Of a stretch of 64,000 bases of DNA, positions 6,339 through 11,251 are shown in pieces. The DNA is from a virus (lineage: Duplodnaviria > Caudoviricetes). The stretch's first letter is position 1. Every line of letters begins with the position of its first letter. The DNA lies in the IMG/VR virus record IMGVR_UViG_3300048909_000132, positions 831 through 64,830 of that record, one strand, 5' to 3'. The position numbers and the translations under genes were made by a program. The notes under the pieces are model-generated. The model was not told the DNA's origin, ran no database searches, and saw only the letters and a list, made by a program, of their open reading frames with translations.

Positions 6339-6534
6339 CGGTCGTCCTCCTACGTTTGCTGCGTTTGCGCGGCGGCGAGGGCTGCGCAAGCTTGGCGGCA
6401 GCGGCATACCAGCCCGACCGGAACGCGCGCTCGATCATTGCCTCGTGCCGTTGGGTCAGCAGGCCGAGGCGTTGCTGATAGTCATGCCACGCCGCATTGA
6501 CCTCGGCGGTGTAGCCCGGTTGCTGCTCATTCAT
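6277..6534 (-). CDS. hypothetical protein
   Basis: ATGA overlap with the QueD-like stop. Confidence 0.6.
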   Translation of the reverse strand: MNEQQPGYTAEVNAAWHDYQQRLGLLTQRHEAMIERAFRSGWYAAAAKLAQPSPPRKRSKRRRTTDDDTAPHHQSAATQHGAPGG

Positions 6535-6830
6535 GGGCGGGCCTCGACCAGATAACCGAGCGTCGGCCTGCGCACGACCACGCGCGTCAAATGCAGAGCG
6601 GTCTGGCCCAGGAACCAGTGAGCCAACGCCTCCATCGTTGAATCGCCAACGCTGGCCTCCAGCACAGTGTGATCGACCAGCGACGCTATGTCGCGCGCCC
6701 TTCTTTCAAACACCGGTAAATCCCAGTCCACGACCGACCAGCACTCGACCAGATAGGAGTGCCCGTGCATCCGTCCATCGGCATCGCGGTGCGCCGCCTC
6801 GACGTTCACCGTCACGGCACGCTCGATCAT
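6531..6830 (-). CDS. queD: minimal QueD-like T-fold protein (6-carboxytetrahydropterin synthase family)
   Basis: EAAH...HGHSY.VE, DH..L, TME.LA.W motifs; adjacent to QueE. Confidence 0.75.
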   Translation of the reverse strand: MIERAVTVNVEAAHRDADGRMHGHSYLVECWSVVDWDLPVFERRARDIASLVDHTVLEASVGDSTMEALAHWFLGQTALHLTRVVVRRPTLGYLVEARP

Positions 6831-7444
6831 GGAATGCCCCATGTCTTGTGCGCCTGGATCGCCAGCCGCCATTCGGGGTGCGCCAAGCAGTATGCTGCGG
6901 CTGCCCGCGTGTTGGCTTTGCGGCTTCGACTGTCCATCGGTGAGAGCCAGCGATAGATAGCTGCAAAGTCGGTGAACAGTTCCGGCTCTGCACCGCGCTG
7001 CGGGTAGACGAGCTTCAGTTCGTCGGCATCCTGCAGCACCAGGTCCGCGCCTGCCTTCGGGCTGACGCACAGCCAGTCGACGTCTGCGGGCAACGGCTGA
7101 GTGCCGTTCGTCTCCACCGCGATGAAGAACCACCTACGGTGCAGTTCCACGACGAGTTGCTTGTCGACCTGTAGCAGGGGTTCGCCGCCGGTCAGCACGG
7201 TCATTCTGTGGTGCTGCCCATCAGGCCATAGCCGCTCGATCGCATCGACGAGCGTGTTCGCATCGCGATACTTGCGACCGCCAACGAACTCGGTATCGCA
7301 GAACTTGCAGACTGCCGAGGCACGATCGGCCTCGCGGCCCGACCAGAGATTGCATCCGGCGAACCGCACGAACACCGCAGTGCGACCGATCTGCGCGCCC
7401 TCGCCCTGCGCCGTCAGGAATATCTCTTTGACCGCGTAGCTCAT
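6827..7444 (-). CDS. queE: 7-carboxy-7-deazaguanine synthase QueE (CX14CX2C radical SAM type)
   Basis: VKEIF.T.QGEG...G..AVFVRFAGCNLWSGRE.DRA.AVCKFCDT, LTGGEPLLQ, ETNGT, SPK, WRL..Q.HK. Confidence 0.95.
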   Translation of the reverse strand: MSYAVKEIFLTAQGEGAQIGRTAVFVRFAGCNLWSGREADRASAVCKFCDTEFVGGRKYRDANTLVDAIERLWPDGQHHRMTVLTGGEPLLQVDKQLVVELHRRWFFIAVETNGTQPLPADVDWLCVSPKAGADLVLQDADELKLVYPQRGAEPELFTDFAAIYRWLSPMDSRSRKANTRAAAAYCLAHPEWRLAIQAHKTWGIP

Positions 7445-8133
7445 GCTACCAGCTCAAGTTGCTCGGTGCCGCGAGGTACCCATCGCATGGGGCATTGCAT
7501 CGCATCCCAGCGTGCGGCCATGCCCCCTGGCGTATTCTGTGGCCGCTTGTGGTTCTGCGCGACGTCAGTGCTGTCGACCGAGGCGAATGGCCAGCGCAAC
7601 CCGGCGCACTGCATCCCGCGCAGCATGTGGATCTGTGGTGCCCTGCCGAACGTGGTGGAAAGCTGGTCCCACACCTCGTCCATCCGCCGCTCCCACAGCT
7701 CACTGAGGACGACCGCGTATTCGGCTGTCGAGCCAATGCACACACGGCTCCAGCCGTCGTCCACCAGTCGGCATAGCCGTCCGACAGGCTCGTCCATGTG
7801 CCACACGGGGCCCGCTTGGCGCTTGCCGTGCGGCCACTCGTTCAGCAATCCATCCTGCTCCTGGCTTGGCGCGTCGATGACATCCGGAGGTACGGCCCAG
7901 GTCGTCGGACAGTGCAGCCACCGATCGCACCACCGGTAGTACGCGGTCCACTTGGCCGCCGCTCCGCGCTTCCACACCGAGAAGGCACCGTTGTCGAGCA
8001 TGACGCTCTGCCCGATCAGGTGGCAGCGACGCACGTCGTCGCATCGTGGGTGCGAGACGCAGAAGGACCGACCGGCAAGCTCATAGAGCGCTTCGACCGG
8101 CGTGATCGGCGTGCCGTGGTAGTGCAAGGTCAC
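7441..8133 (-). CDS. TGT-fold (DpdA-like) base-exchange protein
   Basis: DNGAFS, PDVI, PVWH, IGS, HMLRG and SVDST match the order of TGT/DpdA catalytic motifs; next to queE/queD. Confidence 0.65.
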   Translation of the reverse strand: MTLHYHGTPITPVEALYELAGRSFCVSHPRCDDVRRCHLIGQSVMLDNGAFSVWKRGAAAKWTAYYRWCDRWLHCPTTWAVPPDVIDAPSQEQDGLLNEWPHGKRQAGPVWHMDEPVGRLCRLVDDGWSRVCIGSTAEYAVVLSELWERRMDEVWDQLSTTFGRAPQIHMLRGMQCAGLRWPFASVDSTDVAQNHKRPQNTPGGMAARWDAMQCPMRWVPRGTEQLELVA

Positions 8134-8570
8134 GGGTCGCTGGAGACAGCTGCAATTGCAGCTGTTCGAAGTTCGATCTCGCGTTGCTGACGAAGCTCAG
8201 TCCACCACCGCACACGGCGCTGGGTCGGATGCGTTGCAGCGAGGCGCTTACGAGATGGCGTCGTCAAGCCGAGTGCCTGGGACACCCGACGCAGTCGTGC
8301 CTCGAGCTGCGACGCCGCACAGTTCGCATGCTCGCCGGATCCGCGGAGATCCGCGCGCACGCACAGGCGGATGCATTCGCATATTCCAAGCCGCTGCAGT
8401 TCGCGTGACACCGGTCGGCCAAGCACACCCACGGCGACCAGGTCGTCGCCTTCGAACATGCCGAGAGCGACAATGCCGCCCTGCGCCGGGTCGTGATGGC
8501 GATGATGCAGCGCGATGAAGCGAGCTGCCTCTTTCAACGTCACCCAGCGTGTGGTGAACCTACGCGACAT
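8130..8570 (-). CDS. XF1762-family (GNAT-like) protein, apparently internally shortened
   Basis: TLKEAARFIALHHRHH.P, VGVLGRPVSR.L, RLC and HPT..R.RW motifs. Confidence 0.7.
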   Translation of the reverse strand: MSRRFTTRWVTLKEAARFIALHHRHHDPAQGGIVALGMFEGDDLVAVGVLGRPVSRELQRLGICECIRLCVRADLRGSGEHANCAASQLEARLRRVSQALGLTTPSRKRLAATHPTQRRVRWWTELRQQREIELRTAAIAAVSSDP

Positions 8571-10155
8571 CGAGGCTCATCCAAGCCCTGATGACTTCGG
8601 CGGCGACGACCGGCGAGATCGCGTTGCCGTAGGCGCGCAACTTGGCCACGTCGCCGGAATGCCGAGTAGCCAGCGGGAGAATTCCGGATTGAGTAGGCCT
8701 CCAGCGCCCGTCGCGGCACGGGATCCAGACAAGGCCGCTCCAGGGATCTGGTGGGCCACTTGGTTCTGGAGCTGCTCGCCCTTCGCGCCGCCTCCGCGTT
8801 CCGAGTATGCGCGGTGGTTCGGCGTTCGGTAGTCCCGTTCCGCCGGCGTCGCCCACCCGGTCAGGAGCTTCGTCTGCGAGTGCAGGTTGTCCGGTGTCTT
8901 GCCGCTGGCCACGCGCTTCGCTGAGAAGCCCGTGCTCTCCGCGTCCTCGGCTTCCGGTGTCGACCACCCCGCCAGGTGCGCCTGCTGCGCCAGTTCGTAG
9001 TGCCTCTTCGTCCCAGGCGAACCCCGCGAATCCGCCTCGATCGGTGTCGCCCAACCCGTCAGTTGCACGAAGTCCTGCAGGTCGTTGGCGTGGCCTCCCA
9101 CTGCCCGCGCCAGCACCTTGTCCGGATCCGTCGTCGCTCCTCCCGCCTTCTCCTTCGACGTCGGTGTCGGCCAGCCCGCCAGGAGCGATGCATCCGTCAG
9201 GCTCAGTCCTGGGTGCGCCCTGCTGTTCGGCAGGCTCCTCGAGCCGCTGCTGTTCGCATCGCCCTCGGTCGGCGTCGGCCACCCCGACAACGACGCGGTC
9301 AGCTCCAGCCTCCCCTTGTTCTTGTCGCCGCTCTCCATCCGCGTCACCTCCGACGCCGAGACGTTCGGACTCTCGTTCGCCCTCGGTGTCGGCCACCCCG
9401 ACAACTGCGCCACCTCCCCAAGGTAGAGTGGCACCGAGTTCTGGTTGGCATTGCGCTTCCGGAACGCAGCGCACTTTGCCATCGTGTCCTCGTCGCGAAC
9501 TCGGTCCACCGCTGTCGGTGTCGGCCACCCCGACAACTGGGCGATCGTCGCGACCGTCGCGCCGCGCGCCTGCCCCCGCCACGACGTTCCGGCTTCCGCG
9601 ACCTGGTCCGCTGTGCCCTGGTTCTGATCGCTCGCTCGCGGTGTCGGCCACCCGTCTGTCGGCCACCCACCAGAGCCGCTGTCGGATGTTCGGACCACCG
9701 ACGCCCGCAACCGGGATATCCACCGTCCCGACGGCGTAGCCATGTGCCTCCAGCGCAGCCGATACAACGTCGAGCCACGCCGTGCCGTCGCTGCTTGCAA
9801 CCTGCTCGCCAGCGAGCGCGACAGGGCGGCACTCGCTGATGAGCCACTCCCACGCAGGCCAGAGGTGTCGATCATCAGCAAACCCATCGCCGCGGCCTGC
9901 CTGGGAGAAAGGCTGGCACGGGCAACTGCCGGTCCAGATCGGTCGGTCGTCGGACCATCCGGCCCATCGGAGCGCGAGGCTCCAGAGGCCCAATCCGGCA
10001 AAGAAATGACACTGCGTGTATCCGGCGAGGTCGGCTGGTCGGACGTCGAGGATGTCCCGGTCGTCGACAACCCCGTCGCAAATAAGTCCTGCTGCAATGA
10101 GGTTGCGAAGCCACTGGGCACAGAAGCGATCTTTCTCGTTGTAGTAGGCACTCAT
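8560..10155 (-). CDS. C5 cytosine DNA methyltransferase, alpha chain (motifs I-VIII and X)
   Basis: FFAGLG, GSCPCQPFS, GEQV, RQRLW, C-terminal LRAYGNAI; low-complexity middle; no motif IX in this frame. Confidence 0.9.
   Translation of the reverse strand: MSAYYNEKDRFCAQWLRNLIAAGLICDGVVDDRDILDVRPADLAGYTQCHFFAGLGLWSLALRWAGWSDDRPIWTGSCPCQPFSQAGRGDGFADDRHLWPAWEWLISECRPVALAGEQVASSDGTAWLDVVSAALEAHGYAVGTVDIPVAGVGGPNIRQRLWWVADRRVADTASERSEPGHSGPGRGSRNVVAGAGARRDGRDDRPVVGVADTDSGGPSSRRGHDGKVRCVPEAQCQPELGATLPWGGGAVVGVADTEGERESERLGVGGDADGERRQEQGEAGADRVVVGVADADRGRCEQQRLEEPAEQQGAPRTEPDGCIAPGGLADTDVEGEGGRSDDGSGQGAGAGSGRPRQRPAGLRATDGLGDTDRGGFAGFAWDEEALRTGAAGAPGGVVDTGSRGRGEHGLLSEARGQRQDTGQPALADEAPDRVGDAGGTGLPNAEPPRILGTRRRREGRAAPEPSGPPDPWSGLVWIPCRDGRWRPTQSGILPLATRHSGDVAKLRAYGNAISPVVAAEVIRAWMSLDVA
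8577..10151 (-). CDS. overlapping-frame beta chain: GW[P/A/S]TP module array plus motif IX-like LNPEFSRWLLGIP
   Basis: 524-codon open frame nested in alpha; 8 periodic modules; true start uncertain. Confidence 0.7.
   Translation of the reverse strand: MPTTTRKIASVPSGFATSLQQDLFATGLSTTGTSSTSDQPTSPDTRSVISLPDWASGASRSDGPDGPTTDRSGPAVARASLSPRQAAAMGLLMIDTSGLRGSGSSASAALSRSLASRLQAATARRGSTLYRLRWRHMATPSGRWISRLRASVVRTSDSGSGGWPTDGWPTPRASDQNQGTADQVAEAGTSWRGQARGATVATIAQLSGWPTPTAVDRVRDEDTMAKCAAFRKRNANQNSVPLYLGEVAQLSGWPTPRANESPNVSASEVTRMESGDKNKGRLELTASLSGWPTPTEGDANSSGSRSLPNSRAHPGLSLTDASLLAGWPTPTSKEKAGGATTDPDKVLARAVGGHANDLQDFVQLTGWATPIEADSRGSPGTKRHYELAQQAHLAGWSTPEAEDAESTGFSAKRVASGKTPDNLHSQTKLLTGWATPAERDYRTPNHRAYSERGGGAKGEQLQNQVAHQIPGAALSGSRAATGAGGLLNPEFSRWLLGIPATWPSCAPTATRSRRSSPPKSSGLG
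8845..9666 (-). repeat. 8 dispersed ~14-bp cores (consensus GGGTGGCCGACACC on the - strand) with unique in-frame spacers
   Basis: Cores start at + coordinates 8845, 8956, 9043, 9163, 9271, 9385, 9517 and 9640; periods 111, 87, 120, 108, 114, 132 and 123 nt; partial ninth core near 9657-9666. Confidence 0.9.
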
Positions 10156-10979
10156 GCCGCCATCGCGTGGATGATCGCGGGACGAACCCACCGTCGCTGG
10201 AACGCACGCCACTCGGGACCAGGCGCATGCTTCATCTCCGCTGGCCGCTCCGGTCGCCACAGCATCGCCATCGGCGTGAGGCCAATCGACACCATCTGAT
10301 CGAGCCGCTTCTCCGCTGCGGCGAAACTGTCCTTCGGGTGTCCGATCAGCACGTAGACGCGCAGCCGGTGAGACTCGCGCGTGAACCCTGCTGCCAGCAT
10401 TCGCGTGGCCGCGCTGCGCAGCGTTTCGAACTCGTCGCCTGGGTCATAGGCCCAGAACATCGTCGGGCGTGGTTTGAGATCGGCCAGCAATCCGACCTGA
10501 TAATCCTCCAGCGACAAGGCCTCGAGGCCTCCGGTGAATTCCACACGCCGCGCCTGCTGGCGCAGCATGGCGAACACGGCCTCGACGTGCGGTCGCGGGC
10601 ATGCCAGCAGATTGTCGTCGAGGATGTTCCAACCGGGATGAATCGGCAGCACGTTCGCCGTCGGCCACTTGCGCCACACGCCGCAGAACCAGCAACGACG
10701 CGGGCAGCCGCGCGACGTGATCGTGTAGCCGGGTTTCACATATCGGCCAGGAACGAACTCAAGGCTGTCATCGCCATAGGCCACGCCACCGAGCTTGACC
10801 GGCGCCACCCAGCGCCACTCCTCGGCAAGCCGTTCAGCGACAGGCTTGTCCCAGGTGAACGACACCGAGATATGCACCTCGTCTGCCTCGGCAAACATCG
10901 AAGGCCCGCCGACGTAGGCGAGCGCATCGTCAGGCGTCGCCCTGGTGCGTCGAGGGAACACGCGGATGATGCGTGACAT
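10152..10979 (-). CDS. radical SAM protein with a degenerate cobalamin-binding-like N-terminus
   Basis: TSRGCPRRCWFC (CX3CX2C), ILDDNLL, GGLEA, YVLIG; N-terminal VHISVSFTW and LGG. Confidence 0.85.
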   Translation of the reverse strand: MSRIIRVFPRRTRATPDDALAYVGGPSMFAEADEVHISVSFTWDKPVAERLAEEWRWVAPVKLGGVAYGDDSLEFVPGRYVKPGYTITSRGCPRRCWFCGVWRKWPTANVLPIHPGWNILDDNLLACPRPHVEAVFAMLRQQARRVEFTGGLEALSLEDYQVGLLADLKPRPTMFWAYDPGDEFETLRSAATRMLAAGFTRESHRLRVYVLIGHPKDSFAAAEKRLDQMVSIGLTPMAMLWRPERPAEMKHAPGPEWRAFQRRWVRPAIIHAMAA

Positions 10980-11251
10980 CAGGGATCGTCCCGCCACATG
11001 ACTTCGACGATGCCCTCGACGCGCTCCGTCTCGACCTTATCACCGACGACTTTGAACCTGGGGATCTGCCTGCTGCCGGTGTGGCTGGTGCCATCCTGCA
11101 ACACGACGTAGCGCACCACGTAGCCCGCCTCGGTGTCGTACTCGACGACGAAACGCTGCGGCACGGCGTCGAGGAATATCCGCAGATCCACCGCGACGCG
11201 TGCATCGGTCACGCCGAGCTTCGCGTAGGTTGGCGGCGGCGGTCGGGTCAC
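10979..11251 (-). CDS. hypothetical protein
   Basis: GTG start overlapping the upstream stop; coupled to the radical SAM start. Confidence 0.55.
   Translation of the reverse strand: MTRPPPPTYAKLGVTDARVAVDLRIFLDAVPQRFVVEYDTEAGYVVRYVVLQDGTSHTGSRQIPRFKVVGDKVETERVEGIVEVMWRDDP

Follow-up and report, generated by a model that had tools for sequence, protein, structure and literature searches.

A 64,000-nucleotide stretch of viral DNA (here called the window, from the complete 64.8-kb virus record IMGVR_UViG_3300048909_000132) carries on its minus strand a 1.6-kb gene for a C5 cytosine methyltransferase, the middle of which is filled by eight copies of a short core separated by unrelated spacers. 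What does such an array encode, in which reading frame, and what might it be for? Comparison of the codons of homologous loci shows this gene to be read in two frames, one for a catalytic chain (alpha) and one for a nested chain (beta) that holds the array. We have high confidence in describing the locus as a two-chain methyltransferase with modular cassettes; for the array (8845-9668) as a set of multi-target recognition cassettes in beta, the chances seem to us about even.

The 14-nt core (GGGTGGCCGACACC) occurs on the minus strand, with two mismatches or fewer, at positions 8845, 8956, 9043, 9163, 9271, 9385, 9517, and 9640, with a ninth copy at 9655; elsewhere in the window, on both strands, there are just four matches at this threshold. 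The core-to-core spacings (111, 87, 120, 108, 114, 132, and 123 nt) are all divisible by three, and both the alpha frame and the beta frame (+1 to alpha, and open from 8577 to 10151) are open across the whole array, which comprises eight GW(P/A/S)TP cores and a five-codon stub. Read in the beta frame, every unit consists of GW(P/A/S)TP, an acidic residue two to four positions on, 20-35 unique residues, and L..A.L(S/A/T) ahead of the next G-W; the alpha-frame text of the same DNA is of low complexity and rich in G, R, A, D, and E. Tandem Repeats Finder detects no tandem array at the DNA level, the repetition being confined to the short cores. The array is bounded by motif VIII of the alpha frame (RQRLWWVA) and by a motif-IX-like segment of the beta frame (LLNPEFSRWLLGIPATW), a location equivalent to that of the variable region in C5 methyltransferases. 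A preliminary description of this DNA had reported the eight cores, their in-frame spacings, the two open frames, the beta-unit pattern opposite low-complexity alpha text, and the position between motif VIII and a motif-IX-like segment, and our core searches, frame readings, and translations agree with it on all of these.

The alpha chain is readily recognized as catalytic. It matches PF00145 over residues 74-167 (33.4 bits, cut-off 22) and phrog_363 over its full length (E-value 9e-64), and matches TIGR00675 with 27 bits, below the cut-off of 100.65. Motifs I (FxGxG), IV (PCQ), VI, VIII (QxRxR), and X (GN.I/V) all lie within it, and it has more than 7400 homologs, mostly of about 300 residues and called in the alpha frame. 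The usual C5-methyltransferase layout is not found, however, as the variable region and motif IX lie outside the catalytic chain, with the motif-IX-like segment in the +1 frame. A characterized enzyme with a two-frame arrangement is M.EcoHK31I of Escherichia coli HK31 (target YGGCCR), a heterodimeric C5 methyltransferase in which beta is encoded wholly inside another frame of the alpha gene; motif IX is supplied by beta and the others (I-VIII and X) by alpha, and activity needs both chains (PMC2836561, PMC3404938).

To examine the nested frame we collected some 160 loci homologous to this gene, from both bacterial genomes and viral contigs (51-70% GC). Essentially all of them have a +1 frame that is open along almost the full length of the gene (in Morganella, for example, over 265 of 304 codons); the third frame is open for merely 40-100 codons. 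Relative to synonymous shuffles of alpha, stops in the beta frame after codon 40 are depleted (1.3 observed versus 4.3 expected), whereas those in the third frame are at expectation (13.5 versus 12.4). Third-position diversity in alpha drops from 0.45-0.65 over the first 75 codons to 0.26-0.37 over codons 75-150, a sign of added constraint, and in the motif-IX-like segment it is the alpha first positions – which are the beta third positions – that vary most (0.30 versus 0.17 and 0.16). Sequencing or assembly frameshifts as a source of the two frames are ruled out by the persistence of the layout in some 160 independent loci.

A TTG codon is conserved in 79% of the loci, with AAGGAG just upstream. 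Alpha has an invariant G-F-x-D in which Phe is encoded by the rare TTT in approximately 87% of loci, GC-rich genomes included (window positions 9879-9887; loci L005, L008, and L013 are examples). This choice of TTT creates the conserved beta TTG, and the K-G codons of alpha spell the AAGGAG, such that the synonymous choices of alpha appear to encode both a ribosome-binding site and a start codon for beta.

An alternative to two chains is a single fused one, for which ribosomes would shift by +1 at the WVAD/GWPT junction and by -1 once past motif IX, and an alpha-beta-alpha reading of this kind does give the canonical order of motifs I-VIII, variable region, IX, and X. We find this barely credible, because openness and constraint of the beta frame start about 90 codons upstream of the junction, together with a conserved start and a ribosome-binding-like sequence; moreover, alpha is stop-free through the array, which would be needless for a frameshifting ribosome, and M.EcoHK31I works as two separately expressed polypeptides (PMC2836561). 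The preliminary description had placed the array inside a DNA methyltransferase, and while it does sit within a C5-methyltransferase gene, it is part of a second polypeptide, a nested beta chain like that of M.EcoHK31I.

Beta matches phrog_31772 (E-value 1e-31) and phrog_1008 (E-value 3e-26), both of which are PHROG families labeled DNA methyltransferase. Searching a library of 1.8 billion proteins with a beta profile gives 22,818 cluster representatives, and none of the best 150 matches is fused to a catalytic chain. NCBIfam contains no family for beta, and an ESM Atlas search with beta returns only viral 'hypothetical protein' clusters. The segment LLNPEFSRWLLGIPATW is assigned to motif IX by its pattern and conservation, and has no significant match in Pfam. 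In the neighboring stretch at 8695-8748, the alpha sequence DPW..W..C.DG..R overlaps the beta segment that precedes motif IX, a nearly invariant G..G..A....GG.LNP; variation there is about equal at the three codon positions (0.24, 0.20, and 0.33), the W, C, D, and R of alpha are invariant, and these 50 nt or more appear to be truly dual-constrained.

Gene callers often take beta rather than alpha (as in database proteins P0121-P0270), and many of these calls are extended at the N-terminus by about 55 residues that lie upstream of the conserved TTG. As a consequence of such miscalls, beta chains that are labeled 'hypothetical' and whose starts are doubtful number in the thousands in public protein sets. 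The GenBank records of phages K1G and K1ind3 do annotate the nested open reading frame. The features of the locus are listed in Table 1.

Table 1. Features of the methyltransferase locus and neighboring genes, in window coordinates. L denotes homologous loci and P database proteins; values given for module counterparts are normalized similarity scores.
Feature	Positions	Strand	Length	Remarks
Alpha gene	8560-10155	-	531 codons	Catalytic chain of C5 cytosine methyltransferase
Alpha motif I	9988-10005	-		
Alpha motif IV	9904-9924	-		
Alpha motif VI	9799-9810	-		
Alpha motif VIII	9661-9684	-		
Alpha motif X	8611-8631	-		
Alpha-frame reading of array	8749-9660	-	304 residues	Low-complexity linker (G, R, A, D, E), stop-free, unconserved as protein
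Beta gene	8577-9887	-	436 codons + stop	Nested in +1 frame of alpha; likely start ATG 9887 (TTG at 9881)
Beta N-terminal region	9669-9887	-	73 residues	Conserved; predicted helix and beta-hairpin
Stub GWPTD	9654-9668	-	5 codons	In-frame 15-nt duplicate of first core; overlaps WVAD end of alpha motif VIII
Module 1	9531-9653	-	41 residues	L168 module 1/4 (0.88; 85% DNA identity), P0225 module 3/5
Module 2	9399-9530	-	44 residues	P0205 module 1/4 (0.83)
Module 3	9285-9398	-	38 residues	No clear counterpart within sample
Module 4	9177-9284	-	36 residues	L169 module 1/2 (0.82; 87% DNA identity), L173 module 3/5
Module 5	9057-9176	-	40 residues	P0207 module 1/6 (0.75), L185 module 2/4 (0.69)
Module 6	8970-9056	-	29 residues	Weak counterparts at best (0.48 or below)
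Module 7	8859-8969	-	37 residues	L168 module 3/4 (0.89), L085 module 3/4 (0.84)
Module 8 and lead-in to motif IX	8697-8858	-	54 residues	Last modules of L168, L169, L085 (0.70-0.89)
Beta motif-IX-like segment	8646-8696	-		Nearly invariant in beta alignments; dual-coded with conserved part of alpha
Weak radical SAM match	10155-10997	-		
Weak Mom-like match	8133-8570	-		19 bits, below cut-off
Unassigned protein	7444-8133	-	230 residues	
QueE-type radical SAM	6830-7444	-		31.9 bits
PTPS/QueD-like protein	6534-6830	-		21.6 bits, just under 22.4 cut-off

Within the array, the two frames are under very different regimes. When module types shared between genes are compared, 64% of the nucleotide differences are at third positions of beta codons, and codons with single changes give synonymous to non-synonymous ratios of 1953:361 in beta and 149:2101 in alpha. 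The array is protein-coding in the beta frame only, and is under purifying selection; lack of constraint in that frame was something that the preliminary description had counted against its own proposal, and the constraint is plainly there. Alpha is nonetheless kept free of stops across the array, although it is unconstrained as protein. In the window there are no alpha stops in 360 codons, compared with 5.3 after shuffling of synonymous beta codons, and none of 200 shuffles reached zero. The alpha frame runs through to motif X in 144 of 155 loci, and the family-wide count of zero alpha stops is partly by construction, as genes were defined by an open alpha frame. The locus is therefore a clean case of overlapping genes in which one frame is selected as protein and the other merely to stay open over 300 codons.

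The number of modules differs widely among relatives. In 113 loci we found no modules in two, one in 12, two in 33, three in 36, four in 23, five in two, and six in four (median 3), and genes with a one-module beta occur intact. The window has eight modules and the stub; among the best 150 matches to the beta profile, a set that favors long arrays, there are up to eight modules by a strict pattern and about ten by a relaxed one (P0121, P0172, and P0186). The number in the window had been called unusually large, and eight is indeed at the high end relative to the one to six typical of related loci, but it is not unique, since database proteins have eight to ten. The further claim that the array is hypervariable among relatives is substantiated, with module number, order, and identity all differing across loci.

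Exchange of whole modules between genes is supported by several comparisons. The eight window modules are mutually unrelated outside of the core (normalized score of 0.22 or below), and six of the eight recur in other genes, at other array positions, and in other combinations. The modules form part of a large pool of types shared with other phage genes, in which numbers, orders, and combinations differ. Common module types are found in both orders across genes – (0,1) and (1,0), for example. At the DNA level the window is 85% identical to locus L168 over module 1 and 83% identical from module 7 to the end, with catalytic halves that barely align, and is 87% identical to locus L169 over module 4. 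Every block of DNA homology begins 3-12 nt ahead of a core, and internal blocks end just past the next core. The stub is absent from other family members, in which the first WPTP overlaps WVAD directly, and would fit a scar left by recombination. The array finds its closest relative in L168 (1888-3231), which shares modules 1, 7, and 8 at 83-85% DNA identity and in which the open alpha frame extends far upstream of where it usually starts.

Neither viral contigs nor metagenome contigs yielded a relative with these eight modules in the same order, and gain and loss of modules are for this reason deduced from distant mosaics. An origin of the array by recent tandem duplication or slippage is rejected, as the modules are mutually unrelated and Tandem Repeats Finder returns no array. 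The cores were also considered as a dedicated DNA signal for recombination, and this too is rejected: there are 199 DNA versions among 307 cores across the family, synonymous positions being free to vary, and conservation is no greater than the WPTP peptide requires. The likeness of the core DNA is attributable to the peptide together with codon bias, and not to selection for a recombination site. The earlier suggestion that the DNA cores let modules swap is thus right in that homology blocks start and end at cores and whole modules are exchanged, but wrong insofar as it makes the cores a dedicated signal.

We propose that this phage C5 cytosine methyltransferase has two chains, and that the array forms the variable middle of the smaller one, the beta subunit. 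Beta would dock on alpha via its N-terminal helix-hairpin, and would supply the recognition (small) domain. In AlphaFold2 models the N-terminal helix and hairpin are the only confident part of beta (predicted local distance difference test [pLDDT] scores of 77-92), and a docking role for them is suggested both by this and by agreement with M.EcoHK31I, in which N-terminal deletion of beta weakens its association with alpha (PMC2836561). Each module would be a compact target-recognition unit built on the WPTP..D motif, and the enzyme would methylate several different sequences, shielding the phage from many host restriction systems. We take the WPTP..D motif to resemble the P-T-L-(T/S)-A turn in the recognition domains of ordinary C5 methyltransferases. 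Recombination between phages at the short flanking sequences that are conserved (..LAG-WPTP..) would add, remove, and swap modules, and selection would then favor arrays in which no module is redundant.

That each module is a separate recognition unit, and the enzyme consequently multispecific, we rate at slightly under an even chance. It is suggested by the intact one-module genes, the free order and combination of modules, and the non-redundancy of the arrays, as well as by a module size similar to that of the recognition units of Bacillus phage enzymes and a setting among phage DNA-modification genes. As to non-redundancy, none of 376 within-gene module pairs scores 0.3 or above, compared with 2.6% of random between-gene pairs (about 10 expected by chance), in a set clustered by single linkage and with module pairs that are not phylogenetically independent. 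The stronger version, in which beta subunits are combinatorial libraries of mini recognition domains with one motif per module, such that the window enzyme could recognize up to eight sequences, is a tentative proposal that we hold to be somewhat doubtful. Eight methylation targets would be more than any multispecific methyltransferase known to us has.

Several findings weigh against assigning a separate target to each module. AlphaFold2 does not predict the modules confidently: the window beta has a pLDDT of 51.8 overall with modules mostly below 50, and a two-module beta (87 sequences) has 64.0 overall with modules at 47-67, such that structure prediction gives no support for modules as independent units. 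A VIA-align search with the beta model returned nothing above Z 3.4, and sequence searches of Pfam and the PDB with beta, as well as a PDB search with the beta profile, gave nothing meaningful. For complete recognition domains, modules of 29-44 residues would be short, and because most members have two to four modules, multispecificity would have to be the norm in a very large family, something that has never been reported. The true recognition core, common to the family, could be the conserved segment that immediately precedes motif IX (PARLTASGEMLTG in most members). Finally, M.EcoHK31I, the sole characterized enzyme of this layout, has a single degenerate target, YGGCCR (PMC2836561), and the literature puts its predicted recognition domain in alpha (PMC2836561, PMC3404938).

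The single target of M.EcoHK31I, and the presence of the conserved segment before motif IX whatever the modules, would also fit an arrangement in which the modules jointly form one composite DNA-binding repeat arm of beta, giving a single long or degenerate target or non-specific affinity and processivity, with module number tuning the binding. All modules do share flanks, with WPTP..D at the start and L..A.LAG at the end, as structural repeats would. Their interiors, however, vary in length (29-44 residues) and are unrelated in sequence, their order and combination are free, and one-module genes are intact; furthermore, similar modules never share a gene (none of the 376 pairs), whereas structural repeats usually grow by duplication. 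On balance we consider such an arm unlikely.

It may also be asked whether all eight modules act. Pseudo-domains have reportedly been found in some of the multispecific Bacillus phage methyltransferases (Lange et al. 1991), and just one or a few of the window modules might be active, with the remainder a silent reserve or pseudo-domains. For modules 3 and 6 the sample offers no clear relatives from which constraint could be measured, and with its 29 residues module 6 is shorter than all others. Those module types that do have relatives are under strong purifying selection, though, and the beta frame is intact over all eight modules with alpha also stop-free across them; we regard a largely silent array as quite improbable.

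The methyltransferase gene lies within a run of tightly packed genes (6534-10997, minus strand) that looks like a phage DNA-modification island (Table 1). This neighborhood of radical S-adenosylmethionine (SAM), QueD-like, and weak Mom-like genes, together with the lack of a recognizable domain in beta, could suggest that the modules serve some purpose other than target choice, such as binding host restriction or defense proteins or the neighboring DNA-modification enzymes of the phage. But it is the place of the variable recognition region that the modules occupy, with the docking part on one side and motif IX on the other, and the same arrays are present in many unrelated neighborhoods (lambdoid recombination or NinB contexts, for example), and we think a role of this kind very improbable.

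If, as the multispecific proposal holds, there is one target per module, then methylation specificity in this family would be set by a natural plug-in system, with phages trading modules to track the restriction systems of their hosts, and the modules would be short, portable recognition units for engineered methyltransferases. It would also represent a widespread phage counter-defense that has been overlooked by annotation, since beta is usually uncalled or is called in place of alpha. The textbook description of M.EcoHK31I-type enzymes, which puts the recognition domain in alpha, would need to be corrected.

A literature search found no useful literature on overlapping-frame phage methyltransferases; the two-frame layout itself is already known, and module shuffling in the nested subunit appears to be undescribed. 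In layout, M.EcoHK31I resembles the window gene in having a conserved beta reading frame wholly within the alpha gene, with motifs I-VIII and X in alpha and motif IX, or a motif-IX-like segment here, in beta. It differs in having one known target and no described module array where the window has eight modules, in the assignment of its recognition domain to alpha where here the alpha reading is unconstrained and beta is the selected frame, and in belonging to a restriction-modification pair where the window gene is a phage gene among DNA-modification genes. M.AquI (target CYCGRG) is a two-subunit C5 methyltransferase that is split within the variable region (PMC3404938), and thus shares a natural division into two polypeptides at this location. 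Its split is sequential, however, the second chain carrying motifs IX and X together with the distal part of the variable region, and there is neither a nested overlap nor a repeat array.

The multispecific C5 methyltransferases of Bacillus phages – M.SPRI, M.Phi3TI, M.Rho11sI, and M.H2I – and M.BssHII have tandem recognition units of about 40-50 residues in the variable region. Multispecific C5 methyltransferases are reportedly the subject of studies by Behrens (1987), Trautner (1996), and Schumann (1996). The phage enzymes and the window gene have in common mutually different tandem units between motifs VIII and IX (eight of 29-54 residues here) that vary in combination among related phages, and the presumed role of the Bacillus phage enzymes is to evade several restriction systems. 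Their multispecific function is proven, whereas that of the window gene is a proposal; they are also single polypeptides with two to four units, no nested frame, and no WPTP core, while the units here are in the nested beta. A tblastn search of 50,697 phage records with a beta of this family matched 218 records, and Bacillus is not among the ten commonest of their 21 organism names, the other 11 names not being listed. Lastly, Type I HsdS specificity subunits shuffle their recognition domains by recombination at conserved repeats. They belong to another enzyme class, have two domains per subunit, and often recombine by site-specific inversion within one genome, whereas the exchange of modules described here is seen between genomes only; but in both there are variable recognition units flanked by conserved sequence, and in both recombination would yield new combinations of them.

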